53,791 bases of DNA from Escherichia phage mEp010: sequence record PP180001; one strand, given 5' to 3'. Below the pieces are notes generated by a model that was not told the origin of the DNA, made no database searches, and worked only from the letters and a program-made list of their open reading frames with translations. A program made the position numbers and the translations under genes. Below are positions 16,078 to 37,658 of the stretch, piece after piece (position 1 is the stretch's first letter; each line of letters begins with the position of its first letter).

Positions 16078-16561
16078 CAGGTTATTAGCCTGCGTTTATG
16101 TCGCCGTTTTCGTGATCATCAACCTTATTGTTAACCATTGCGGCCCGTGGGTAATTCCGATCACCACGGTAGCCGCTGTGTGTGTCAATATGATGATCCG
16201 TGACTTCTTGTTATATGACGGCGGCCTAAAATGGTCGGCTACAACATGCGCCGCCGCTGGCGCAATCACGGTGCTGATAAATTACGACGCCGGAATGGTA
16301 GCGATCGCGTCATTCGTTGCGGTTGTTTCCGGTGCGCTTATTTCTGGCGGCGTTTACCGGGTTTTACCTGGTGACTTTGATTCGAAACGCTGGCCTGCAA
16401 ATATAGCGTCCGCCATTGGCGATGCGTTAATTTTTCCTACGCTATCGTTTATGGCATTTATGCCTGAAATATCAGCTATGCAATTCATCTCAAAAATGGC
16501 AGCGGTAACGGTGATCACTATCATCATGCGCCGCTATTTCACGTTTGAAGGCAGAAAATGA
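16049..16561 (+). CDS. Multi-pass inner-membrane protein, possibly VUT/YhhQ-like (queuosine-precursor transporter family)
   Basis: About five predicted TM helices; loose resemblance only; ATGA-coupled to the cytosine methyltransferase gene. Confidence 0.35.
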   Translation: MTQMKKVAIDRLLACVYVAVFVIINLIVNHCGPWVIPITTVAAVCVNMMIRDFLLYDGGLKWSATTCAAAGAITVLINYDAGMVAIASFVAVVSGALISGGVYRVLPGDFDSKRWPANIASAIGDALIFPTLSFMAFMPEISAMQFISKMAAVTVITIIMRRYFTFEGRK

Positions 16562-17340
16562 GCAAGGCTAAACACTGGTTTAATAATTGGCTTAGAAGTT
16601 GGGTGGTATGGTCGCTGTACGACGGCAGCGGGTACGCAGTTAAAGATTGGGCGGAAGCTGGATATAAGTGCTATTGCTTCAACTATGACGGCGCAAATCA
16701 CGGCGATTATGAAGGCGTTAAAATCATTCATCCAAACATTGAATACGTTAACGTATGGATTGACAGCCATTTCCTGGTAATGTTCTCCCCTGAATTGTCT
16801 GTTTATCCAGAGCCTGACATTATCTTGGGCTTCCCTCCATGCGACGATCTCGCTGTGTCTGGCGCTCGCTGGTTCGCTGATAAACGGAAAAAAGATCCTG
16901 ACTTCCAGGTGAAGGCGGCGAATAGCGCAAAACTGGTAGAAAAACTGGCGGATATGCACAACGTGCCGTGGATGGTGGAAAATCCGGTGGGAGCACTGTC
17001 AACGCTATGGCGCAAACCTGATTTTATCTTCAACCCGTGCGCTTACGGTGGCTACCTGCCTGAAGATGACAAACATCCTGCTTTCCCTGATGTTTACCCG
17101 CCGCGAGACGCGTACACGAAGAAAACTTGTATTTGGTGCGGCAACGGACTTAAACAGCCGCTTTTTAGACCTGTAGATCTTAACTCTGGTGATAACCCTG
17201 GGTGGGCGAAAACCGGAGGCAGGACGAAACGAACAAAGATGATCCGCTCACTAACGCCGCGTGGCTTTGCCCGTGCTGTATTCCTGGCTAACGACCGGGC
17301 CATCAATCGTACTACGCTCAACCGCGTTTTACCGGACTGA
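16558..17340 (+). CDS. DNA cytosine-5 methyltransferase (short form)
   Basis: Motif I-like LYDGSG, PC motif GFPPCDDLAVSG, ENV motif MVENPVGAL. Confidence 0.65.
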   Translation: MSKAKHWFNNWLRSWVVWSLYDGSGYAVKDWAEAGYKCYCFNYDGANHGDYEGVKIIHPNIEYVNVWIDSHFLVMFSPELSVYPEPDIILGFPPCDDLAVSGARWFADKRKKDPDFQVKAANSAKLVEKLADMHNVPWMVENPVGALSTLWRKPDFIFNPCAYGGYLPEDDKHPAFPDVYPPRDAYTKKTCIWCGNGLKQPLFRPVDLNSGDNPGWAKTGGRTKRTKMIRSLTPRGFARAVFLANDRAINRTTLNRVLPD

Positions 17341-17499
17341 AGTTTACAAAATGGCGTCATTGCGTGATGTGGATCACATAATGGCGCTTTTCACCTTGTT
17401 CTGGTGTATCCATTTTGTATACTTCAAACAAGCAAAATGCTCTTTAAAAATCCGGCAGCGCTGAAATGCGTAGAAATCACCTGAAAAGGAGAGAGCATT

Positions 17500-17676
17500 A
17501 TGCCTTTTGATAATTACCAATGGCATGACGACTATGAACGAGAAAGCGTCATGCGTGCAATGTGCAATGTATGCAGCACGAAGAAAGGAGACTGCAACGA
17601 GTGCAACGAATGTTTAGATCATTGGCTAAGGGCCGGACACGCCGAAAGGCTGAACGAAACAGAGAATCAAAAATAA
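17500..17676 (+). CDS. Small Cys-rich protein (58 aa; CNVC..CNECNEC)
   Basis: AAGGAG SD 7 nt upstream; below ORF-track cut-off; immediately upstream of ninG. Confidence 0.4.
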   Translation: MPFDNYQWHDDYERESVMRAMCNVCSTKKGDCNECNECLDHWLRAGHAERLNETENQK

Positions 17677-17690
17677 TCGGGGTGGTTTTT

Positions 17691-18296
17691 ATGAAAAACC
17701 CTAAAAAACCCATAAAACGCCGTTGCAAATGCTGCGGCGTTTTTTTTGAGCCTAAATATCACAATCAAACGTGGTGCAGTGATGAATGTCTGGAAGAACT
17801 GAAGTTTGACCAGCTATGCCGCGACCGTGAAAAGGCTATGAAGGCTATGGAGCGGAAGAAACGCCGTGATAGCCAGAGGGAAGAACGCAACCGGAAGCGG
17901 AAGCAGTTACACCCGCGAAGTTACTGGATTCACCAGGCGCAAACTGTATTTAACGCATACATACGCGAACGTGATGCAGGACAACCGTGTATATCTTGCG
18001 GGACTTACTACGGTGATCAATGCGGTTGGGATGCTGGGCATTACAGGACAGTAGCGGCGGCTGGGCATCTTCGATTCAACGAGGATAACGTGCATCGTCA
18101 ATGCAAACAATGCAATCAGAGACTGGACGGTAACATATCTGCTTATCGCCCAGCGCTGATTAGAAAAATTGGCCTGGCTAGGGTGGAAGCGCTGGAGAAC
18201 AACAACGAAATTCACAAATGGACTATCGAAGAATGTAAGGAGATCGCAAAAGTTTATCAGGCTAAGTTAAACGCCTTAAGGAGAAAGGCGGCATGA
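17691..18296 (+). CDS. ninG: NinG / Rap recombination protein
   Basis: Close match to lambda NinG (RRCK..C...F.P, PRSYWI.QAQ..NA.IRERD...PCISCGT, WDAGHYRT.AAA..LRFNE.N.H.QC..CN, WTIEECK); Met44 of track ORF 17562-18296. Confidence 0.9.
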   Translation: MKNPKKPIKRRCKCCGVFFEPKYHNQTWCSDECLEELKFDQLCRDREKAMKAMERKKRRDSQREERNRKRKQLHPRSYWIHQAQTVFNAYIRERDAGQPCISCGTYYGDQCGWDAGHYRTVAAAGHLRFNEDNVHRQCKQCNQRLDGNISAYRPALIRKIGLARVEALENNNEIHKWTIEECKEIAKVYQAKLNALRRKAA

Positions 18297-18697: not shown

Positions 18698-18880
18698 ATG
18701 AAAAACGAAATTAAAGATCTGCAAATAGATATTCAGCGCGATGAGCATGATTTAGAGACTGTGCGACAAATACAGGCTTTTCACATGAGAGAATTGCTTG
18801 CACTTAAAGAGCTTGAAATAAAGTTGGTGCAGGCAATATCTGATCGCAAAAGACTGGTTGCGCGTTACGGGGGCAAATAA
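18698..18880 (+). CDS. Hypothetical coiled-coil protein (60 aa)
   Basis: Track ORF. Confidence 0.45.
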   Translation: MKNEIKDLQIDIQRDEHDLETVRQIQAFHMRELLALKELEIKLVQAISDRKRLVARYGGK

Positions 18881-19608
18881 TGAATCTGGAATCAATTCTG
18901 AAATTCCACTTTCCAAAATCTCCGCGTTTATCAGATGAGAGCCGGGGCACGTCCCCGGATGCGCTTAATACTACGGATGCACTAACCGCTGCGGGTATGG
19001 CGCAATCGCGCGTGGAGCTTGGCTACAGCGCTTTTTTGGGGAAGATGGAACTATCACAAGCCGAAAAACATAAGGCCGTGGTTTTGCTTACAGAGCGTTT
19101 AAGTGCTATGGCAAAAGACTACGAATATGTTATGGAACTGGACGAGGCCAAACGCAATGATCTCATTATTCTTGTTGCCGTTTTCGCGTTTCGGGATTAT
19201 TGCCAGAGTGCAGCGACAGAAAAAGTTTGTCCTAAGTGCGGCGGTCACGGGCATTTACCAAATCCATATTGCGAATACACATCAACAATTTGCGCACGGT
19301 GCGGCGGCAAAGGCTACGTTAAAAACCATTGCCAGCGGTGCAAGGGCCGTGGCGAAGTACCGGATAAAGCAGCCAGCGAAGCGGCGGAAATGCCAGTGTT
19401 CAAAACGTGCCAGCATTGCGGCGGGCGCGGGTACTCGCGTTTCCCTGTAGATCTTGTCCGGCAGGCGGTTAATCAGCTTGTTTTTCCGGTAAGCCGATCA
19501 ACGTGGTGGAAGAAATACCGTGCTTTCTATGAAGACGCCATTGGTGAATTGTTCAAAGAAGAGGCGCGGGCTGATAACGAAATTAAACGAGTGACGCGGG
19601 GTGAATAA
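18880..19608 (+). CDS. DnaJ-type zinc-finger protein (four CxxCxGxG repeats) at the Q-antiterminator position
   Basis: CPKCGGHG, CARCGGKG, CQRCKGRG, CQHCGGRG; follows ninG-rusA as Q does in lambdoid phages, but Q identity unproven. Confidence 0.5.
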   Translation: MNLESILKFHFPKSPRLSDESRGTSPDALNTTDALTAAGMAQSRVELGYSAFLGKMELSQAEKHKAVVLLTERLSAMAKDYEYVMELDEAKRNDLIILVAVFAFRDYCQSAATEKVCPKCGGHGHLPNPYCEYTSTICARCGGKGYVKNHCQRCKGRGEVPDKAASEAAEMPVFKTCQHCGGRGYSRFPVDLVRQAVNQLVFPVSRSTWWKKYRAFYEDAIGELFKEEARADNEIKRVTRGE

Positions 19609-19811
19609 TGGATAAGCTGGAAATAAACGATCAGTTTGCCGTTATTTTGTTTGAAGATAAAACGGGCGGCGCATGGTGTAAGAAAGTCACTGGCGCAGAA
19701 GCGCGTTTGGTATTGGGTATGGCAAGCGCGTTAAATGATGGTGAATTGCCAGCCGTGCCAATTGAGCCGGTTCATATTTACGGGCGGAGTAACGACAATG
19801 AAAATACTTAA
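19608..19811 (+). CDS. Hypothetical protein (67 aa)
   Basis: Track ORF, ATG overlaps upstream stop. Confidence 0.45.
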   Translation: MDKLEINDQFAVILFEDKTGGAWCKKVTGAEARLVLGMASALNDGELPAVPIEPVHIYGRSNDNENT

Positions 19812-20145
19812 TATTGGGTGGCTGTATTGCGAAAACTGCGACGATGACGGCATGGTAGTAAAAACTGAAAAAGGTTGCGGCTTCATGCTGTATCAAGACG
19901 ATAAGTTTGTTTGCCCGCGATGCGGTGGTCGTGGTGAGATAGAAATCGTTTATGATATTGCTACCGCACCTAAGCCATCGCGTATTGTCCTTGACGAAAA
20001 AATAAAAATTCATCCTGCTTTATTGCAGCAAATTATCGATCACGTATCGGCAGCCGCAATCTATAGCGATAACAATTATCAGCGTGAAATGAACGTCAAA
20101 CGTGCGATTGAGCAGTATTTCGAGGGTGGTGATAATGAAGCCTAA
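19798..20145 (+). CDS. Hypothetical zinc-ribbon protein (CENC...CPRCGGRG)
   Basis: Met22 of track ORF 19735-20145. Confidence 0.5.
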   Translation: MKILNIGWLYCENCDDDGMVVKTEKGCGFMLYQDDKFVCPRCGGRGEIEIVYDIATAPKPSRIVLDEKIKIHPALLQQIIDHVSAAAIYSDNNYQREMNVKRAIEQYFEGGDNEA

Positions 20146-20407
20146 ATTAAAAGAACATATTTACCGCCAGTTGGTTAACGATCTGACGGAAACGGCGCGC
20201 CATTACGCTGGAACACAACAGTTACGCGGGCGGTTGTCTTCAGTTGTCAACCGTTACATTGATGCAGGATGTCACCGCAAAGGTGAAATAACGATGGATG
20301 ATGCCATCAAGCGCCGTTCGGCTGATTGGTCAGTTAGTAACACAGGGTTAACCGGATACATTGAAGGATATAACGACTGTTTACAGGAACATAGCAATGA
20401 AAAGTAA
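20135..20407 (+). CDS. Hypothetical protein (~90 aa)
   Basis: Met12 of track ORF 20102-20407. Confidence 0.45.
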   Translation: MKPKLKEHIYRQLVNDLTETARHYAGTQQLRGRLSSVVNRYIDAGCHRKGEITMDDAIKRRSADWSVSNTGLTGYIEGYNDCLQEHSNEK

Positions 20408-20609
20408 CCGCAAGCGCCTTGTAAGGGCGTACGACAAAGCATTAAAGGCTTTTGATGATCTGCGACACAATAAACGCCAGCGCCGTAAATGGGCGCGTAT
20501 GCTTGTAAGAGAATGGCATAGCGAGGACTATTTCCTTGATGCCAGACACATGACGCAGGATGTAGCTGACATGTTAGCTGACGAGAACGTTTATTATATG
20601 ATGTGGTGA
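20397..20609 (+). CDS. Hypothetical basic protein (~70 aa)
   Basis: Met13 of track ORF 20361-20609. Confidence 0.45.
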   Translation: MKSNRKRLVRAYDKALKAFDDLRHNKRQRRKWARMLVREWHSEDYFLDARHMTQDVADMLADENVYYMMW

Positions 20610-20613
20610 TAAC

Positions 20614-20979
20614 ATGAAAATAATCATTGATTATCTTTGTCATGCTGTGAATACGCTTTTTGGTTTTTATCAACAACCATTCCTCAAAGAATGGGATGAA
20701 ATGCTCAATGACATCATTGACAAAGGGTTAATAATGGAGGTTGACGATCTCACAATCAAATTTAATTACGATGGTAAAGAATATCAAATTTGGGTAGGTA
20801 ATAGATGGTATGCATACGGACATATTTATTCAATTGGCGGTAAATACATTAAACGAAGCCAGGAGTTCAGGCCGCGATTCAGAACAATGCGCAGACTGCA
20901 TGACCTGCATATGAATATATTTGAAGATCAGGAAGAGCGCGAACTATTTAAGATCTACGGGGATAAATCATGGAGCTAA
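20614..20979 (+). CDS. Hypothetical protein (121 aa)
   Basis: Track ORF. Confidence 0.5.
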   Translation: MKIIIDYLCHAVNTLFGFYQQPFLKEWDEMLNDIIDKGLIMEVDDLTIKFNYDGKEYQIWVGNRWYAYGHIYSIGGKYIKRSQEFRPRFRTMRRLHDLHMNIFEDQEERELFKIYGDKSWS

Positions 20980-21200
20980 AAATCTGGTGTGCTATCGACG
21001 TTGTTGATAATGAATTGTCTATGTTCGCCACTAACGGGAAACGCGTTGTGATCGCTACATGGACACGTAACCATGATGATATTGCTTTCCGTCGCGCGGC
21101 GGCTGAATTGCTTTTCGCTGATGGCGGCTACACGATGAACATCGCACAGCTTGCCAGAATGAAAGATGAAATACTGACTGACAGCTACACAACTGCATAA
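20970..21200 (+). CDS. Hypothetical protein (76 aa)
   Basis: Track ORF. Confidence 0.45.
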   Translation: MELKIWCAIDVVDNELSMFATNGKRVVIATWTRNHDDIAFRRAAAELLFADGGYTMNIAQLARMKDEILTDSYTTA

Positions 21201-21215
21201 CTTGGGTGGGTTGAT

Positions 21216-21449
21216 ATGCGTATCTATGAACACAAGCGCGACAAAACGCGCTTTTTTGTCCGTGCTGGCGTGGCGTACCAGTATCACGAATGCGGTTACA
21301 TTGAGGCGCTTGCTTACGATCTGGATTTTGAGCAAGAAAAGGCATGGTTCGATTTTAAAATTTACCGGAAACGCAAACCAACGCGCGACGAGCGACACGC
21401 TATCCGTGACTTTTTAATCAGTATTGAGCGCTGGGGGACAGAGGAATGA
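21216..21449 (+). CDS. Hypothetical protein (77 aa)
   Basis: Track ORF. Confidence 0.45.
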   Translation: MRIYEHKRDKTRFFVRAGVAYQYHECGYIEALAYDLDFEQEKAWFDFKIYRKRKPTRDERHAIRDFLISIERWGTEE

Positions 21450-21739
21450 GAACTAAGAAAACAGCAGATCAGAAAGCGTTAGTTATAGCCACAACGGATG
21501 TTTCGTTATTCACGAAGGGTGAAGAGATAGAACTTAAATTGCTTTTCGGCATGTTTGAGCCACACGAAAAGCCGTGGTTCGTGCATGAAGATAAACAAGG
21601 CAATATGCGCGTAGTAGTGCCTGACAGTAAAAGCGATATATTTTTTGGTATTCCAGATCCGTTACATGACGGTGAGATGTTGGCGGTATTGTTGATCTCT
21701 GATGCTGTTACTTACAAGGGAAAGAAACATGAAAGTTAA
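21446..21739 (+). CDS. Hypothetical protein (97 aa)
   Basis: Track ORF. Confidence 0.5.
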   Translation: MRTKKTADQKALVIATTDVSLFTKGEEIELKLLFGMFEPHEKPWFVHEDKQGNMRVVVPDSKSDIFFGIPDPLHDGEMLAVLLISDAVTYKGKKHES

Positions 21740-21956
21740 ATTCTTGCACGATCACGGTTATCCGTCACTGAAACAGGTTGTTGGTAAGGTGGTTGCCGTC
21801 GTTCATAGTGATAATGTCACATGCATGATTAACGGTGCTGACCTCATTGCCGCTGGCGCTGATGACCATTACATCAATCCGGCATGGTCGTATACGTTCA
21901 GCCTGGCAGAGTTCGTAGGCGACAAGGGGCGAGGGCTGGAAGTAGTCGAGGGTTAA
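21729..21956 (+). CDS. Hypothetical protein (~75 aa)
   Basis: Met10 of track ORF 21702-21956. Confidence 0.45.
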   Translation: MKVKFLHDHGYPSLKQVVGKVVAVVHSDNVTCMINGADLIAAGADDHYINPAWSYTFSLAEFVGDKGRGLEVVEG

Positions 21957-21960
21957 AATC

Positions 21961-22209
21961 ATGGACGTTTACGAAGATCTATACCTCCAGACAAACACTT
22001 GCACTTTTTATTTTCTGAAAAACGGCGTCGTATATCGCAGCGATGACGGGGTAATAATGAAAGAGTGGTTATTCAAGCGTAAAGACCTACTCGACGATCT
22101 GGTTTTTGCCGGGATATTCCGTAAACGTCCTGCCAACCTGGAAGAAGAAATGTTGATAGAGGTATTTCAAAATGAAAATCAGGGTAAGTTATTTCCGGGC
22201 GAAAGATAA
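21961..22209 (+). CDS. Hypothetical protein (82 aa)
   Basis: Track ORF. Confidence 0.45.
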   Translation: MDVYEDLYLQTNTCTFYFLKNGVVYRSDDGVIMKEWLFKRKDLLDDLVFAGIFRKRPANLEEEMLIEVFQNENQGKLFPGER

Positions 22210-22423
22210 GGCAACGGGAAAGCAGATGGCGATCCTGGTTAACGAGGCGCAATACATGTTTGTCCTTCAGCCGTGGTGTGTTGTAGACCTTAACGACAAT
22301 TGCCGCCGTCACGCTGCGCGGAGTGCTGTAGGTATGAAAGGCTGGCAACCGCGCGACATGGAAAGCTATTGTGAATGGAAATTGGTAGCAAAATATACGG
22401 TAGACTATAAAGGGGTTTTCTGA
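22172..22423 (+). CDS. Hypothetical protein (83 aa)
   Basis: Track ORF. Confidence 0.45.
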   Translation: MKIRVSYFRAKDKATGKQMAILVNEAQYMFVLQPWCVVDLNDNCRRHAARSAVGMKGWQPRDMESYCEWKLVAKYTVDYKGVF

Positions 22424-22425
22424 TT

Positions 22426-22641
22426 ATGTTTGCAAGGTGCGTTTATTCTGACACTGTGTGCTTTACTGTTGGGGAATTGTATAGCGTTGACCTTCTTAAC
22501 GGGTGTAAGCGCGGCGCTGGCGGTATTCATTATGTAAAAGATAATGATGGCGATGCGTGGCAATTTTACGGCGATTATGCAAAAGGGGTTGTTAAGGGTA
22601 GTTTTGATAATCGTGTAATGGCGCGTTTCGTTAAGTGGTGA
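22426..22641 (+). CDS. Hypothetical protein (71 aa)
   Basis: Track ORF. Confidence 0.45.
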   Translation: MFARCVYSDTVCFTVGELYSVDLLNGCKRGAGGIHYVKDNDGDAWQFYGDYAKGVVKGSFDNRVMARFVKW

Positions 22642-22650
22642 GGTAGTGTC

Positions 22651-22890
22651 ATGAGCCGGAATCAGAGATACCAGTGCACATATTCACGATGTAGCGCGTT
22701 TTTTAAGAATGGCAAGATCTACGAAGTCGGCGCGGCATTGGTTGACGCAAAGAATCAGGAATATATTCACGCCATTACTGACGACCAGGGCCAGTTATGG
22801 CGATTTTATAAGATGGGGTGTGGCACGGCGCTTGTTTATGCGCGTGCTGGTGGTGGCGCTTTTGCTGCGTTTTCGTATGTGGGGTATTAG
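22651..22890 (+). CDS. Hypothetical protein (79 aa)
   Basis: Track ORF. Confidence 0.45.
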   Translation: MSRNQRYQCTYSRCSAFFKNGKIYEVGAALVDAKNQEYIHAITDDQGQLWRFYKMGCGTALVYARAGGGAFAAFSYVGY

Positions 22891-22891
22891 A

Positions 22892-23110
22892 ATGACTATT
22901 TTAACGTGTCACGGATCTGATCTTGATTGTTTCGAAGACGGTTGCCAGTACGAAGCGGAAAAACCAGGCGGATTACCGAAAAACCCGTTTTTAGTAGTTA
23001 CAGACACTTACGGTCACTTATGGTATGCAGCGCCCAGCAAGGCGCGCGGCTGGTGGCTGATTCAGAATGACGATCGCGAGGTTGTAGTGGCCTTTAAGCA
23101 GGATGAATGA
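22892..23110 (+). CDS. Hypothetical protein (72 aa, Cys-containing)
   Basis: Met62 of track ORF 22709-23110, starting 1 nt after previous stop. Confidence 0.45.
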   Translation: MTILTCHGSDLDCFEDGCQYEAEKPGGLPKNPFLVVTDTYGHLWYAAPSKARGWWLIQNDDREVVVAFKQDE

Positions 23111-23209
23111 AAAGCGTGATCTACCTCGCAAAGTATACGAAATGGCATTGTTTCGGCAGTGCCGTTTTGTTATATATAAGTCAAAGAAGACGGAAGGGGA
23201 GACAAGAAA

Positions 23210-23335
23210 ATGAACGCTAACGCTAAATATCCGGCCTGGGTTTTTGAGTTATATGCCCGCTATTTTGAATTGCTTGCACCAGATGAAGAAGCATTAAGCA
23301 TTGACGAATACGCTGAGTGTTTAGGGTTCAAATGA
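23210..23335 (+). CDS. Small hypothetical protein (41 aa)
   Basis: GGAGACAAG SD; preceded by TTGTTT-17-TATATA promoter-like element (23148-23176) and the recurrent motif. Confidence 0.3.
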   Translation: MNANAKYPAWVFELYARYFELLAPDEEALSIDEYAECLGFK

Positions 23336-23393
23336 GACAAAGAAGAATAAAGCACGGGGCCGGATGGCCCCATCAAACAAGAAGGTTGCAATC

Positions 23394-23693
23394 ATGAAAA
23401 GCGATAAATTCATTGCTTGCTGTTTTGTTGAAGTGCCTAAATGTGATGTTTTCTGCAATTATGAATTTAAAGACAGTTTAGGACGATCTCATGTTGTTGT
23501 CGGCAAGCGCGGAGAATGGTTATATATAACAGACGACGACATGATTTTTACCAGAAATCAACTATTTCACATCAACTCATTAAATAATTATGCGCCAGTT
23601 GCCGCTATATCCATGATGGATCTTAAATCTAATATGTGGCTTGAAAAGGACACTGTGAATAAAGCGCGTAGCTTACCTGGTGCGGAGTTTTAA
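23394..23693 (+). CDS. Hypothetical protein (~99 aa)
   Basis: Met11 of track ORF 23364-23693. Confidence 0.5.
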   Translation: MKSDKFIACCFVEVPKCDVFCNYEFKDSLGRSHVVVGKRGEWLYITDDDMIFTRNQLFHINSLNNYAPVAAISMMDLKSNMWLEKDTVNKARSLPGAEF

Positions 23694-23695
23694 TT

Positions 23696-23953
23696 ATGGT
23701 TGTGTTCAGACTGTGGCGCGGTAATAGCATACTTGATGGCGAGTACAGCCGCGTTATTGAAGATGTTAATCGCGGTCGCTTTTATGAACTGGCATACAGG
23801 GAGGCAATGGAGAACACCTATTTTGATGAGTCGATCCCTATGTGGCGGAAGATGTCTGGCGAAATAGCTTTCGCAATGCGTCACGGGTTTTATACAGATC
23901 ACAACACGTTAACAGATGCAGAACTGGTAACAATTCTTTACGAAGGAGAATAA
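23696..23953 (+). CDS. Hypothetical protein (85 aa)
   Basis: Track ORF. Confidence 0.5.
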   Translation: MVVFRLWRGNSILDGEYSRVIEDVNRGRFYELAYREAMENTYFDESIPMWRKMSGEIAFAMRHGFYTDHNTLTDAELVTILYEGE

Positions 23954-23956
23954 CAA

Positions 23957-24280
23957 ATGTCTAAATTTATCAGTGTTAAAGTTTTCCGTGGCACTTTTCC
24001 AGAAGATGAAAAAAATGGACAATTCGCCGGACAGCCTGGCGCATGTTTCCGTGTAGCCACTGACGACGAGGCGGGCGTTAAATGCTTCCACGTAGCTGAA
24101 CCTCCTTTTGACGTGAAAGACCTTGATAATGCAGATCACGTTAAATTTTTTATCTTAGTATCATTGGAACTTAATCCGTTCCCTGGTGCTGAAGTGGAAT
24201 TGATTGGTGCTGAACTGGTGGCGGAATACAAAATGACTGAAGGTGTGACAGGGGGAATTGACATTGAGCGCATCAAATAA
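23957..24280 (+). CDS. Hypothetical protein (107 aa)
   Basis: Track ORF with AGGAG SD. Confidence 0.5.
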   Translation: MSKFISVKVFRGTFPEDEKNGQFAGQPGACFRVATDDEAGVKCFHVAEPPFDVKDLDNADHVKFFILVSLELNPFPGAEVELIGAELVAEYKMTEGVTGGIDIERIK

Positions 24281-24509
24281 GCTATATAAGATCAGGTGTA
24301 AAGGCGAATATCCTGGCTTTACGACTGGATGCGAATACCTGGGAAATATTGGGTATGGCCCTTTCGGTGAATTAGGGATGAACACGATGGACGACGACGG
24401 CGACAGCAGGACGCTTGATCTTGATTCTGATGATTTCGAATACATCCCGCCGATAACTTACCGCGACGTTGATGATTTCATGGCTGAACATGACGACGAG
24501 GACGATTAA
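24258..24509 (+). CDS. Hypothetical acidic protein (83 aa)
   Basis: Track ORF. Confidence 0.45.
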   Translation: MTLSASNKLYKIRCKGEYPGFTTGCEYLGNIGYGPFGELGMNTMDDDGDSRTLDLDSDDFEYIPPITYRDVDDFMAEHDDEDD

Positions 24510-24567
24510 ATGGAAGAGTGGTATAAAAATTTATTAATCATGTTTCTTTCTGAAAATTGGGCGCTAT

Positions 24568-24831
24568 TTGAGCGTTTTTGCGAGGAACATGGTGAAGACC
24601 CTAACGATATTTATCACGATCTTGGTGGTGAAGATGACTGAATGCCTTATTGTTGCGGTAGTTATAATTTACCTGGCTGGTGTCATTTTAATGGGCGCTT
24701 TTCAGAAGGCTGTTGATAGTGACGGCGTTATTTGGTTCGAGCTAGTCTTCTGGCCTTTCATTACGATATACGCATTCAGTGATGCTATGCGTATTAACAT
24801 CATGCGAGCCATTAAGGAGCGCAAAAAATGA
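24568..24831 (+). CDS. Hypothetical membrane protein (87 aa, 2 TM)
   Basis: Track ORF. Confidence 0.5.
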   Translation: MSVFARNMVKTLTIFITILVVKMTECLIVAVVIIYLAGVILMGAFQKAVDSDGVIWFELVFWPFITIYAFSDAMRINIMRAIKERKK

Positions 24832-25010
24832 TTGAAGATGGGGTGTACGCAGCAACAGTAGTCGACGGGTTGTTTTACCGCGTGGAAGGTGATGATATTC
24901 GTATCCGTGTTGGCGGTGGCGAGTGGGTAGCGCCAATCATTAAGACGACGCGAGAAACAATTAAAATATTTCTTGATGCTGGTGAACTGGTAAAGGTTAG
25001 CGACCTATGA
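24828..25010 (+). CDS. Hypothetical protein (60 aa; MIEDGVY... paralog A)
   Basis: Track ORF; N-terminus paralogous to next gene. Confidence 0.45.
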   Translation: MIEDGVYAATVVDGLFYRVEGDDIRIRVGGGEWVAPIIKTTRETIKIFLDAGELVKVSDL

Positions 25011-25183
25011 ACGAGATCGAAGATGGCATCTATTTGCATAAGGTATTTGACATCGCCTATTTGGTAAGAGGCGAAGAGGTGATGATAAGGAATGAAGATG
25101 TTCCTTATTGGGAATTAAGCGACATGGATCGCGAACACATGCAAACATTGCTTGATAACGGACTGATATACAGAACTGCGTAA
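25007..25183 (+). CDS. Hypothetical protein (58 aa; MNEIEDGIY... paralog B)
   Basis: ATGA-coupled to previous gene; below ORF-track cut-off. Confidence 0.4.
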   Translation: MNEIEDGIYLHKVFDIAYLVRGEEVMIRNEDVPYWELSDMDREHMQTLLDNGLIYRTA

Positions 25184-25191
25184 AGCCGTAT

Positions 25192-25220
25192 TTGTGGGTC
25201 GAAAACAAACAGATTAAAAT
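25192..25220 (+). promoter_or_regulatory. Candidate late promoter (PR'-like): TTGTGG-17 bp-TAAAAT
   Basis: Lies 8 nt after the last small gene and ~30 nt before a terminator hairpin, i.e. promoter then short terminated leader upstream of lysis genes, as at lambda PR'-tR'. Confidence 0.45.
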
Positions 25221-25248
25221 ATTACCTAACAATGCGAAACTGTAACTA

Positions 25249-25270
25249 CCCGGCCCCGCGCCGGGTTTTT
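25249..25270 (+). terminator. Rho-independent terminator (tR'-like) upstream of holin
   Basis: CCCGGC-CCCGC-GCCGGG hairpin plus TTTTT. Confidence 0.6.
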
Positions 25271-25290
25271 GCTTTGTTGGAGGAAAATCT

Positions 25291-25491
25291 ATGTTCGACA
25301 GAATACGGGAGGCGTGTGCGTATGTGACTGGGGCCGTAACTGCTTTTTTCGGCGCTATAACCATCAATGACGTCGCTGTTTTCGTTGGTATCTTATCAAC
25401 CATAGGCACATTTGCCGTTAATTATTACTTCAAATCACAGGAGAACAAGCGGGCGCAAGAGGAACACGACGCGCGAATGGGGAATAAGTAA
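25291..25491 (+). CDS. Holin, two-TMD pinholin type (S21-like)
   Basis: 66 aa, two TM segments, C-terminus NYYFKSQENKRAQEE resembles phage 21 S; GGAGGA SD. Confidence 0.75.
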   Translation: MFDRIREACAYVTGAVTAFFGAITINDVAVFVGILSTIGTFAVNYYFKSQENKRAQEEHDARMGNK

Positions 25492-25983
25492 ATGATTAGC
25501 CAATCGCTGAAAAACAAGATTGTTGCGGCGGCGGCTGGTGGGGCGATCGCTATTGCGGCGGTGATGATTAAGCCATTAGAGGGCGTGGAATACGATCCTT
25601 ATCGTGATGTTGTTGGCGTATGGACTGTTTGCTACGGTCACACCGGAAAAGACATCATGCTTGGGAAGACTTACACGCAATCAGAATGCGATGCTTTGTT
25701 GAACAAAGATCTACATAAGACCGCAAAAGCGATTGACCCATATATCAAAGTCGAAATATCAGATTTTACCCGCGCTGCACTTTATTCATTCGCCTATAAC
25801 GTAGGCGCAACCAACTTCAAAACATCAACCTTATTAAAGCTACTCAATGACGGCAAGAAATCAGAGGCGTGCGCACAGCTTAAGCGCTGGGTATACGCTG
25901 GCGGTAAGAAGTGGCAAGGCCTGGTTAACCGCCGCGAGGTTGAATATGCCGTTTGCGAATGGGGTGAGAAATGGACAAGGTGA
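25492..25983 (+). CDS. SAR endolysin (GH24 lysozyme with N-terminal signal-anchor-release domain)
   Basis: Strong resemblance to phage 21 R: Gly/Ala-rich SAR helix, EGV.Y.PY.D.VGVWTVC.GHTG, YSF.YNVGA.NF.TSTLL. Confidence 0.9.
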
Positions 25984-26441
25984 AGACGTTAATCATCGCC
26001 GTTGTTGTTTGCATTATTGCCGGACTGATCGCCGTAACGTGTTATTACCAGGGTGAAACGGCAAGGTTACAGGAAGAAGTCACGGTGACGAAAGGCGCAC
26101 TGAAGACAGCAAGTAACACTATTCAGCAGATGAAGGAGCGATACGCCGAACTGTCAAAACTTGATAAGAGGTATCACGATGAGATTAAAGCTATCAGATC
26201 TGACATTGCCGATCTGCGCACTGGCATTGATAACGGCACTATCAGGCTGCGCGTCAACGCAATACCCGTGCGAGTGTCCGACTCCGCCGAATCCGCCAGC
26301 CGCATTGATGGAGCCTCCTGTAGACTCACTCCCGACGCTGAATCGGCTTATCTATCCCTCAGAGAACAACTAAAAGAGAAAGATGCGAAGATAACCGCGC
26401 TTCAGGGCTACATCAAAACACAGTGCTTACGCAAAGAATAA
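25971..26441 (+). CDS. Rz: Rz-type i-spanin
   Basis: 156 aa; N-terminal TM then coiled-coil periplasmic domain; follows endolysin. Confidence 0.75.
26179..26373 (+). CDS. Rz1: Rz1-type o-spanin lipoprotein, embedded in +1 frame inside Rz
   Basis: Lipobox LSGC, Pro-rich mature part; AAGAGG SD; Met7 of track ORF 26161-26373. Confidence 0.75.
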   Translation: MRLKLSDLTLPICALALITALSGCASTQYPCECPTPPNPPAALMEPPVDSLPTLNRLIYPSENN

Positions 26442-34210: not shown

Positions 34211-35263
34211 ATGTACTTTACCAAAGAAAACCTTGCTACCAACGCCCGTATGCAGGGCCATTGGAGCGAACTGTGGGCGCAGCGCAATATCTTCAACGCT
34301 CAGCATGACGCCATGATTGCAGCAAATAAAGCAAACATGACTTCTGAAATGCTTGCCTGCAACGCTGTTGGTGGCTTCGCAAAAGAGTTCTGGAAAGAAA
34401 TTGATAACCAGATCATCGAACTGAACACCGAGGAGATCGGTATTGAGATTGTCAACGACCTGATGGGTGTGCAAACCGTACTGCCTATCGGTAAAACGCT
34501 GAAAATGTACAGCGTATCCGGCGACATCAACGATGAAGTCGTAATGTCTATGGATGGTCAGGCGCCTCACGGCTATGATCACACAGAATACGGCAGCGAT
34601 GGCGACCCGATCCCGATGTTCGCAGCGGGTTACGGTGTTAACTGGCGTTTAGCCCAGGGCTTAAATACTGTAGGCATCGACCTTGCCCTGGACAGTCAGC
34701 GCCTGAAACTGAAAAAATTCAACAAAGCACGCGTTAAATTCTACCTTGAAGGTAACGAAAACATCGTGGTTGATGGTCATAAAGCTATGGGTATTAAAAA
34801 ACATAAAAACACCCAGCAACTGACTCTGACCGCTGACCTTACCACTGCAAAATTTGACGCACTGATCGACTTCTTCACCGTTGGTGAATTTGGTGTTCTG
34901 GCCCGCAATAACTTCGTTGCTAAATATGATGTTATGTGGGTATCACCTGAAATCATGGCTAACCTGGCCCGCCCGCACATCGTTAACGGTGCTGTAGTTG
35001 GCAGCGTGCTCAATACGGTTATGCCGTTCGCCCCGGTTGGTGAAATCCGCCAGACCTTTGCACTGAAAGGCAACGAAATCATTGCTTATCAGCGCCGCCG
35101 TGACGTTATCACCCCGCTGATCGGTATGACCACTGGCGTAGTACCTGTACCGCGCACCATGCCTACCGATAACTACAATTTCAAAATCATGTCTGCCGAA
35201 GGTTTACAAATCACCTGCGACATGTTAGGCCGTTCCGGTGTCGTTTACGGCAAAAATTCTTAA
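34211..35263 (+). CDS. Major capsid protein
   Basis: 350 aa; strong SD; followed by strong terminator, typical of major capsid genes. Confidence 0.75.
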   Translation: MYFTKENLATNARMQGHWSELWAQRNIFNAQHDAMIAANKANMTSEMLACNAVGGFAKEFWKEIDNQIIELNTEEIGIEIVNDLMGVQTVLPIGKTLKMYSVSGDINDEVVMSMDGQAPHGYDHTEYGSDGDPIPMFAAGYGVNWRLAQGLNTVGIDLALDSQRLKLKKFNKARVKFYLEGNENIVVDGHKAMGIKKHKNTQQLTLTADLTTAKFDALIDFFTVGEFGVLARNNFVAKYDVMWVSPEIMANLARPHIVNGAVVGSVLNTVMPFAPVGEIRQTFALKGNEIIAYQRRRDVITPLIGMTTGVVPVPRTMPTDNYNFKIMSAEGLQITCDMLGRSGVVYGKNS

Positions 35264-35283
35264 TTAGAACGTTTCCTGTAACT

Positions 35284-35311
35284 CCCCGGCGCAATGCCGG
35301 GGATTTTTTTT
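35284..35311 (+). terminator. Rho-independent terminator after major capsid gene
   Basis: CCCCGGCGCAATGCCGGGG hairpin plus T8. Confidence 0.8.
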
Positions 35312-37136: not shown

Positions 37137-37613
37137 ATGTCTCAGACTTGCGAAAAAGGTTCGTTTTTAGGCCGTGACGTTGCCGCATTCTATGCTATCG
37201 CCTGCCCTAATGCGAAACCTGAAGAAGGCGCTTATAAAGCGTTAGGCATGATGCGTGGCAAATCGCTTTCCGTAGAATGGGAAACCGCAGACGCCACCGC
37301 TGATAAATCAGCAGACTATACCAAAGAATCAATGGTAACTTACAAGTCCGTTTCTTTCTCCGGCGACGGCGTATCCCGCACCGAAGAAATCCACAACCAG
37401 AAAGCACTTAAACGCCATGTTATTAACCCTGGCGAAACAACTGGTGCGCAGCCTTACGTCTGGCTAAAACTTGTTTCCCCGCTCGACGTAACCGAAGGCC
37501 CATTCCTTTGCACCTCCTTTAAAGAAGAAGATCCGCACGACGATGTGTCCACTTGGTCCATTGAGTGCGAAAGCGCTGGCAAGGTCACAGTAGGTGACGT
37601 TCCGTCAATGTAA
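37137..37613 (+). CDS. Major tail (tube) protein
   Basis: 158 aa; position upstream of chaperone and tape measure genes. Confidence 0.6.
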   Translation: MSQTCEKGSFLGRDVAAFYAIACPNAKPEEGAYKALGMMRGKSLSVEWETADATADKSADYTKESMVTYKSVSFSGDGVSRTEEIHNQKALKRHVINPGETTGAQPYVWLKLVSPLDVTEGPFLCTSFKEEDPHDDVSTWSIECESAGKVTVGDVPSM

Positions 37614-37658
37614 CAGTAAATATTAACATCGGGGCCATTTGGCCCCTTTATTTTTAGG

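Follow-up and report, generated by a model that had tools for sequence, protein, structure and literature searches.

A long-arm Qλ-family antiterminator and a displaced candidate late promoter cassette in the mEp-immI coliphage mEp010

The Q Locus

Escherichia phage mEp010 (sequence record PP180001) was analysed over its whole length of 53,791 nucleotides (nt), which we call the window. At the position of the lambdoid late antiterminator gene Q, it carries an open reading frame (ORF) for a 242-residue protein with four cysteine motifs of a kind better known from DnaJ. A candidate late promoter, followed by a pause-like element and an intrinsic terminator, lies 5.6 kb further downstream, just before the lysis genes, and the DNA in between is filled with small genes. 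Here we describe the protein, the promoter region and the intervening block, and ask how late transcription may be controlled in a phage so arranged.

The gene order is ninG (PF05766), rusA (PF05866), an ORF of 60 residues (18698-18880) and Q, all of them joined by overlapping stop and start codons. The initial annotation had the Q position right after ninG-rusA; the order is as it said, with the 60-residue ORF, left unmentioned there, in between. Q starts within the stop of that ORF (TAATG) and ends in the same fashion, the last base of its stop codon being the first base of the ATG of the next gene (TAATG). The features on which the argument turns are as follows.

18880-19608, + strand: Q gene, Qλ-family late antiterminator of 242 residues (PF03589, phrog_127, match to λ Q, AlphaFold2 model and Foldseek)
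19219-19326, + strand: codons 114-149 of Q, 36 inserted residues that λ Q lacks, at the arm base, with motifs 1 and 2 (phmmer alignment and alignment A2)
19327-19434, + strand: codons 150-185 of Q, the zinc ribbon equivalent to that of λ, with motifs 3 and 4 (aligned to λ C118, C121, C144 and C147)
25192-25220, + strand: putative late promoter PR', with -35 TTGTGG (25192-25197), a 17-nt spacer and -10 TAAAAT (25215-25220) (sequence and conservation)
about 25203-25214, + strand: candidate Q-binding element, the invariant part of the spacer, AAACAA...GAT (conservation over 50 loci)
25228-25233, + strand: AACAAT, candidate -10-like σ-dependent pause element, about +1 to +6 of the late transcript (likeness to λ AACGAT)
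25248-25271, + strand: tR'-like intrinsic terminator with a 7-bp stem (6 GC), a 5-nt loop and T5 (hairpin 25248-25266, T-run 25267-25271)
25291-26441, + strand: holin (25291-25491), endolysin (25492-25983) and Rz-like spanin (25971-26441) (PF16080, PF00959, PF03245; PHROG lysis families)

An 8-kb query around Q found by megablast only the phages MagusPhagus, mEp044, mEp554, mEp013, mEp021 and mEp515, at 88-92% nucleotide identity over 54-92% of the query, and the gene order of the window agrees with the annotations of these relatives. Judged by nucleotide similarity and common gene order, mEp010 is a member of the mEp-immI (mEp021-like) coliphage group. The phages of this group are Nus-dependent, non-lambdoid and temperate, and use an N-like antiterminator, Gp17, with three documented nut sites (PMC11893012). 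A "Qλ-like" protein has been named for them, with no description of late control; the late promoter, the pause element and the displacement from Q were not described alongside the Gp17/nut system (PMC11893012). For comparison within the group we collected 46 loci with this Q from IMG/VR, five GenBank relatives and the window itself, and dropped two contigs that ended too early, which left 50 loci.

The Q Protein and Its Zinc-Ribbon Arm

The protein scores 107.4 bits (E=4e-31; cutoff 26.7) against PF03589, the Qλ family (PMC9388147), and its residues 1-240 match phrog_127, "anti-termination protein Q-like", with E=3e-78. Among solved structures (phmmer against the PDB) the best match is λ Q (7ubm_Q, E=4e-38), residues 1-113 aligning to λ 1-113 (88 bits) and residues 150-240 to λ 117-207 (45 bits). 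The homology to λ Q, at about 35% identity, is full-length and includes the N-terminal nozzle-forming segment, the helix-turn-helix (HTH) body and the C-terminal tail. G39 and T239, which correspond to G39 and T206 of λ, are invariant in alignment A2; in λ these are sites of antitermination-defective mutants (PMC9388147). An AlphaFold2 model built from 48 homologs has a predicted local distance difference test (pLDDT) score of 82.2, and all eight significant Foldseek matches to it are Qλ structures, 7ubn_Q being the best (E=3.6e-15; template-modelling score, TM, 0.75). The likeness to λ Q (PF03589; 4MO1, 7UBJ-7UBN) thus extends to the RNA-exit nozzle segment at the N-terminus, the four-helix body with its HTH, the zinc-ribbon arm and the four cysteine ligands. 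Sequence, profile and predicted fold all identify the protein as a genuine antiterminator of the Qλ family (PF03589).

The four CxxCxGxG motifs that had been noticed in the translation after ninG-rusA are present and exact: C117PKCGGHG, C138ARCGGKG, C151QRCKGRG and C177QHCGGRG. The last two belong to the ribbon that λ Q also has, where C151/C154/C177/C180 align to λ C118/C121/C144/C147 and are invariant in an alignment of 48 sequences (A3). The first two lie in the 36-residue insertion, at the point where the body of λ Q passes into the zinc-ribbon arm, which in λ comprises residues 114-152 (PMC9388147). They are presumed to make a second zinc site, and the alignment to λ would have the zinc sites paired in tandem (1+2, 3+4) rather than nested as in DnaJ. 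Q is 85-98% identical among the 50 loci, and the inserted ribbon is its most variable part: 26 of the 36 positions vary, all four cysteines are kept, and there are two main alleles (CPKCGGHG.../CARCGGKG and CMECGGYK.../CKKCKGHG). The λ-like ribbon barely varies within the group, and the HTH region is almost invariant. Across the group loci we found no association of the inserted-ribbon allele with the -35 class of the promoter.

An extra pair of motifs at this place is not peculiar to mEp010. Alignment A2 has the same insertion, longer (about 45-75 residues), in the P22-like gp23 of ST104 (257 residues), the Q of HK225 (271 residues) and the Q of the Shiga toxin (Stx) phage Lys8385Vzw (250 residues), with four CxxCxG motifs in each; E. 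coli prophage Qs of 250-283 residues are of the same type. These long-arm Qs are 34-41% identical to the Q of the window, and the Stx-phage Q sits just upstream of stxA. Matches in a collection of 5.8 billion proteins were proteins of 240-283 residues titled "antitermination protein (Q)", most of them bearing precomputed matches to both PF03589 and PF00684, and some belonging to E. coli clusters with thousands of members. As far as sequence can tell, the four-motif arm is nothing new and occurs in classical lambdoid Q proteins.

Could the protein nonetheless be a regulator of a new type, or a zinc-finger chaperone akin to DnaJ that happens to sit where Q is expected? Its four CxxCxGxG repeats are like those of the cysteine-rich domain of DnaJ/Hsp40 (PF00684), which bind zinc in DnaJ, and there are weak matches to PF00684 (28.4 bits) and to DnaJA3 (2ctt, E=0.23), the best DnaJ-type chain in the PDB. 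The former, however, is under the curated cutoff of 32.7, and the Pfam matches of the protein include neither a J domain nor the C-terminal substrate-binding domains of DnaJ. DnaJ structures are likewise absent from the Foldseek matches to the model. Alignment to λ Q over the full length, a predicted fold that matches only Qλ structures, and the identity of motifs 3 and 4 with the zinc ligands of λ Q itself all argue against such a reading. The repeats sit inside a Qλ fold, and the resemblance is at the motif level only. With the Pfam score below cutoff and a model that matches no DnaJ structure, we rejected a DnaJ relationship; at the level of family membership, sequence and model have already refuted this alternative, and we leave it next to no probability. 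The profile and structure searches against the Q and DnaJ families that the initial annotation had proposed thus came out on the side of Q, and its suggestion of a new kind of late regulator falls, the four-motif arm being known in lambdoid Qs.

The Late Promoter-Pause-Terminator Cassette

The PR'/tR'-like element reported 5.6 kb downstream of Q is found at 25192-25271. It reads TTGTGG-17-TAAAAT-ATTACCT-AACAAT, then the hairpin and its T-run, after which the ribosome binding site and the holin gene (25291) come directly. We read λ PR' as TTGACT-17-TAAATT-TGACTC-AACGAT, in which AACGAT, at +1 to +6, is a σ-dependent pause element. The pausing role of this element has been described (PMC9388147), and qut, the Q-binding element of λ, lies between -35 and -10 (PMC6266700). 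The window thus has the target layout of λ: a -10, a short discriminator, an AACNAT element at the transcript start, an intrinsic terminator and the lysis genes. The long-arm systems look similar, with TAATTT-TATCCC-AACGAT in HK225, TAAGAT-TTTCCC-AACGAT in the Stx phage and TATCAT-AACCCT-AACAGT in ST104, and in each of them a short leader and then a terminator hairpin come next (21-38 nt past the pause element). Their discriminators, like that of mEp010, end in CC(C/T) before AACNNT.

Assuming a start at 25228, the hairpin occupies +21 to +39 and the T-run +40 to +44, and the terminated leader RNA is predicted to be about 45 nt long, as against 194 nt in λ. The minimum-free-energy fold of the leader has -21 kcal/mol (z=-2.06). 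The annotations of the relatives put a terminator at the same position as the 25248-25271 hairpin. An "experimentally demonstrated terminator t5" is on record (PMC11893012), which may or may not be the hairpin before the holin gene. It should be mentioned that the predicted late transcript begins with 12 nt (AACAAUGCGAAA) that are the complement of UUUUGCUUUGUU, right after the terminator hairpin (25228-25278). In the minimum-free-energy fold the two segments, both invariant in the group, pair to make an extended stem that encloses the terminator.

The exact pair of -10 and pause element occurs once in the whole window of 53.8 kb; a looser pattern gives 91 matches, about as many as chance would (96 expected). 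The window holds no second copy of the spacer motif and nothing else that resembles a Qλ-type cassette. A promoter scan of the region found σ70-like sites to be fewer than chance would give (9 found, 19.4 expected). Late control by some other factor, another suggestion of the initial annotation, finds no support here, the sole cassette being of Qλ-type architecture.

The cassette is found downstream of Q exactly once in each of the 50 group loci, always directly before the lysis genes, and is kept in two loci (L029 and L050) despite a different downstream gene. The 50 loci hold 31 distinct cassette sequences. They do not differ in the -10, the CTAACAATGCGAAA block, AACAATGCGAAA, the two stems of the hairpin or the proximal part of the spacer (AAACAA...GAT). 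Variation is seen in the -35 (TTGTAG, TTGTGG, TCGCGC), in the discriminator and in the loop of the hairpin. All substitutions in the terminator hairpin fall in the loop, and with invariant stems the group loci give no covariation signal either way. This pattern of variation fits a functional promoter-pause-terminator unit with a Q-binding element in the -10-proximal spacer. The near-invariance of the HTH region of Q agrees with that of the proximal spacer across the same loci, which points to the same placement of the element.

The lysis cassette comprises the first genes of the late operon, and late genes on the + strand span more than 28 kb. Two terminator-like hairpins on that strand lie within this distance. 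One, at 35283-35303 (9 pairs and T8), comes right after the likely major capsid gene (34211-35263), and the other, at 37631-37646 (6 pairs and a T-rich tail), right after a likely tail gene (37137-37613). Since the operon is so long and holds these hairpins, late expression would need processive antitermination.

Displacement of the Cassette from Q

In described systems, pR' lies directly downstream of Q, with qut partly between its -35 and -10 (PMC6266700; PMC9388147). In the window, the Q stop codon and the -10 are 5,607 nt apart, and over the 50 group loci the distance ranges from 1,928 to 6,726 nt. In all group loci tested, the next gene begins before Q has ended (gap -1 or -4), which leaves no room for a promoter there. 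Directly after Q in the window there is neither a promoter nor a second qut-like site: intergenic space is absent, and no other exact -10/pause pair or copy of the spacer exists anywhere in the window.

As a comparison sample we took 68 loci encoding long-arm Qλ proteins that are only distantly related (34-41% identity) and applied a strict pattern: TANNNT, 5-7 nt, AAC[AG][AG]T, then a hairpin and T-run within 260 nt. The pattern was matched in 39 of these 68 IMG/VR loci and in ST104, HK225 and the Stx phage, together 42 loci, with the cassette 28-66 nt past the Q stop. Loci outside the strict pattern, and λ (66 nt), have by inspection a promoter, a pause-like element (AACACT/CAATGAT variants) and a terminator within about 150 nt; one locus alone (L105) is unclear. 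Because all of the 42 other Qλ-family loci have a Q-adjacent cassette, we take the displacement to be specific to the mEp-immI group. The window departs from the rule of adjacency, which is a rule about arrangement and not about a property of the protein.

Since the separation is common to all 50 loci, it is an ancestral feature of the group rather than a recent insertion in this genome. The literature on Q and pR' yielded no description of such an arrangement. The displaced cassette is a group-wide variant of the Q module, apparently undescribed.

The Small-Gene Block between Q and the Cassette

The DNA between Q and the promoter carries the following genes.

19608-25183, + strand: about 23 tightly packed small genes of 41-121 residues (ORFs, PHROG matches)
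20614-20979, + strand: core gene g5 (presence over 49 loci, as for the other core genes)
20970-21200, + strand: core gene g6
21216-21449, + strand: core gene g7
21729-21956, + strand: core gene g9
21961-22209, + strand: core gene g10
22172-22423, + strand: core gene g11

Most of these ORFs match PHROG families and are therefore real genes, as had been supposed, although the count is about 23 ORFs on the + strand and not about 25. No block gene has a Pfam match, and the PHROG matches are all of unknown function. In a tblastn search against 49 related blocks, g6, g7, g9, g10 and g11 were found in all 49 and g5 in 48, the remaining genes in 18-45. The core genes are confined to the mEp-immI group in the phage database (tblastn); the exception is g5, with relatives in Edwardsiella phages at 45% identity. 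With six core genes beside some 17 variable small ones, the block is not simply cargo. The idea that the block is an inserted cargo island separating Q from its target is correct to the extent that something intervenes; the presence of the separation in all 50 loci and the six core genes speak against a recent insertion. The other mEp-immI phages (mEp021, mEp013, mEp044, mEp515, mEp554 and MagusPhagus) share the arrangement of Q, block, cassette and holin; in mEp021 the block has 8 genes in 1.9 kb, as against about 23 genes in 5.6 kb in the window.

The Q gene runs without a gap into these small genes, which argues that they belong to an early, pre-late transcription unit. The block lies between the nutR2 region and the putative PR', so that the simplest inference is co-transcription with Q in a Gp17-dependent early operon. 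The extra nut site nutR2 is upstream of ninG (PMC11893012). A boxA-like TGCTCTTTAAAAA at 17438-17450, close to the rrn boxA consensus, sits between a methyltransferase gene (16558-17340) and a ninF-like gene at 17500 and coincides with the placement of nutR2 in the Gp17 system (PMC11893012). A terminator-like hairpin with T8 is present at 17721-17739, within the N-terminal coding part of ninG (codons for RCKCCGVFF); it is terminator T6, T7 or T8 in the annotations of the relatives, and may be a coding coincidence.

The block is presumably a nin-like region that reaches past Q and is transcribed early. As with the λ nin region and the Q-S regions of Stx phages, it is a run of small, variable, mostly uncharacterised genes, and as with nin, it has intrinsic-terminator-like hairpins (21234-21253; 23144-23170) within an N-dependent early operon. 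It differs from nin in its place: nin is upstream of Q, whereas the variable region of the window lies between Q and PR', where it would be early. Stx and other morons, by contrast, are downstream of PR'-tR' and are late genes, and the block has six group-wide core genes. One core gene, g10 (82 residues), is a homolog of mEp021 gp41, annotated "virion structural protein". The latter was found by mass spectrometry of virions, and its gene was considered a structural one, conserved but "mislocated", ahead of the lysis region (PMC11893012). As g10 is upstream of the putative late promoter, a virion-associated protein would come from the early operon.

Several smaller features of the block may be mentioned. 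The paralogous pair reported at 24828-25010 and 25007-25183 is borne out (30% identity over 57 residues, E=1e-5). Three adjacent small genes (22426-22641, 22651-22890 and 22892-23110) also resemble paralogs: the second matches phrog_31142, the PHROG of the first (E=1e-5), and C..G..Y...DD.G..W can be seen by eye in all three. The trio and the pair suggest local duplication within the block. The second gene past Q (19798-20145, about 115 residues) has CxxC...CPRCGGRGE zinc-ribbon motifs that resemble the Q arm, with a weak match to phrog_4446 and presence in 20 of 49 related loci.

The hairpin at 21234-21253 (7 pairs, 5 GC, then TTTTGTCC) lies within the 5' end of g7, and the annotations of mEp554 and mEp515 have a terminator at the corresponding site. 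Like the λ nin terminators, it may render the distal block dependent on N-type antitermination. Further on, a non-coding module of about 100 nt (23111-23209) is conserved in 38 of 52 loci. It begins with a CRP-like palindrome cGTGATCTACCTCGCA at 23115-23130, which is a perfect TGTGATCTGTATCACA in mEp044, mEp554 and others. A hairpin (ATGGCA-12 nt-TGCCGT, with TTTTGTT) follows and then TATATATAAG. The internal promoter-like element that the initial annotation placed at 23148-23176 exists as part of this module, which also holds the terminator-like hairpin at about 23144-23170. The final T is missing from the -10 of the element, and the annotations of the relatives call it a terminator. The centre of the CRP site would be at about -61 from a start just past TATATA, which is class I spacing. 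Finally, a GC hairpin ACGGGGCCGGATGGCCCCAT at 23352-23373 is found in about 30 related loci, always about 20 nt ahead of the next gene's ATG. On the + strand no T-run follows it; on the - strand it has a T-rich, terminator-like tail, and no - strand genes are nearby. An Rfam scan of the whole window gave no family at gathering score.

A Model of Late Control and Its Alternatives

We favour, at a probability of roughly three in four, a model in which a Qλ-type antiterminator made from the early operon acts in trans on the single displaced cassette at 25192-25271. Expression of Q would come from the early rightward operon (ninG-rusA-orf60-Q) and depend on Gp17, and this one qut-type cassette would be its target. 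RNA polymerase would start at about 25228 and pause as region 2 of σ70 binds once more, at the -10-like AACAAT (+1 to +6). From its site in the conserved spacer of the promoter (25198-25214), Q would then load onto the paused complex, and the polymerase so modified would ignore the terminator at 25248-25271, as well as the later terminator-like sites at 35283 and 37631, and transcribe the genes for holin, endolysin and spanin along with over 28 kb of morphogenesis genes. What the sequences themselves establish is the family and predicted fold of Q, the architecture, conservation and uniqueness of the cassette, and its displacement in the group. By homology with λ we infer where transcription starts, the pause, the site of Q binding and the Q-dependent readthrough; expression of the block with Q would likewise be early.

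Several observations weigh against this model. The -35 is poor (TTGTGG; TCGCGC in 12 of the 50 loci) and an extended -10 is lacking, so that the strength of the promoter is uncertain. The spacing of the -10 and the pause element is 7 nt, as against 6 nt in λ and most relatives, and the hairpin begins 15 nt past the pause element, the shortest distance in the sample (typically 21-38 nt). The invariance of AACAATGCGAAA could in part reflect its complementarity to the sequence after the terminator instead of σ binding. Polymerase modified by Gp17 and coming from the early operon would also cross this terminator, and Q may not be the sole route into the late genes. In the literature we found no transcript, footprint or genetic data on late control in mEp-immI phages.

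The last route can be made the principal one: the late genes would be turned on mainly by read-through of the terminator at 25248 from the early operon, by polymerase modified by Gp17 at nutR1/nutR2, with the promoter minor and Q auxiliary. Q, the block and the late genes are on one strand and gapless after Q, the putative PR' has a weak and variable -35, and an N-like system with nutR2 upstream of ninG has been demonstrated (PMC11893012), the boxA-like TGCTCTTTAAAAA being at the corresponding place. Against this stand the conservation of Q, which is 85-98% identical over the 50 loci and scarcely varies in its HTH, and the invariant -10 and pause-like element, which are as in Q-dependent promoters and which a plain terminator would not need. 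Moreover, the same geometry for read-through from the early operon is present in λ, where Q is still required. We consider this alternative improbable.

More improbable still is that the cassette is an ordinary promoter and attenuator of the lysis genes under non-Q control, with Q acting at some other, unrecognised site or having lost its function. It would account for the Q-binding site being known only as a candidate, for an inserted ribbon that varies much with no matching change in the promoter, and for the missing adjacency of Q and qut, which is the usual clue in annotation. It would have to contend, however, with a window that has no other site like a Qλ-type cassette and with a region in which even σ70-like sites are below chance, as well as with an architecture that matches the 42 Q-adjacent cassettes of other phages.

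Within the model of Q acting in trans, one may go further and suppose that the displacement of qut is functional and not an accident of insertion. By the retention of six core genes, the virion-associated one among them, and of a quickly changing set of small genes between Q and PR', it would create a distinct class of genes co-transcribed with Q and ending at the terminator that gates the late genes; the hypervariable ribbon would tune loading at a compact cassette, with its hairpin 15 nt past the pause element, an N-like and a Q-like antiterminator would converge there, and the block would be a group-specific module for timing or host takeover. This is a speculation, and we think it doubtful, although somewhat less so than the alternatives just discussed.

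Concluding Remarks

For annotation, the lesson is that four DnaJ-like CxxCxGxG repeats at the Q position are to be taken for a long-arm Qλ-family antiterminator and not for anything new. The long-arm variant has no solved structure, and one could reveal how a second zinc ribbon alters recognition of the Q-binding element. The textbook Q module, with Q, PR', pause element and terminator, would not be obligatorily contiguous: in the mEp-immI phages, which infect gut bacteria and reportedly equal the lambdoid phages in frequency, the target would be 2-7 kb from Q, before the holin gene. The mEp021 system gains a testable model of late control, with a start site, a pause element, a leader of about 45 nt and a candidate Q-binding spacer. 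The block adds about 23 uncharacterised and putatively early genes, one of them virion-associated, which are candidates for host-takeover or anti-defence functions.

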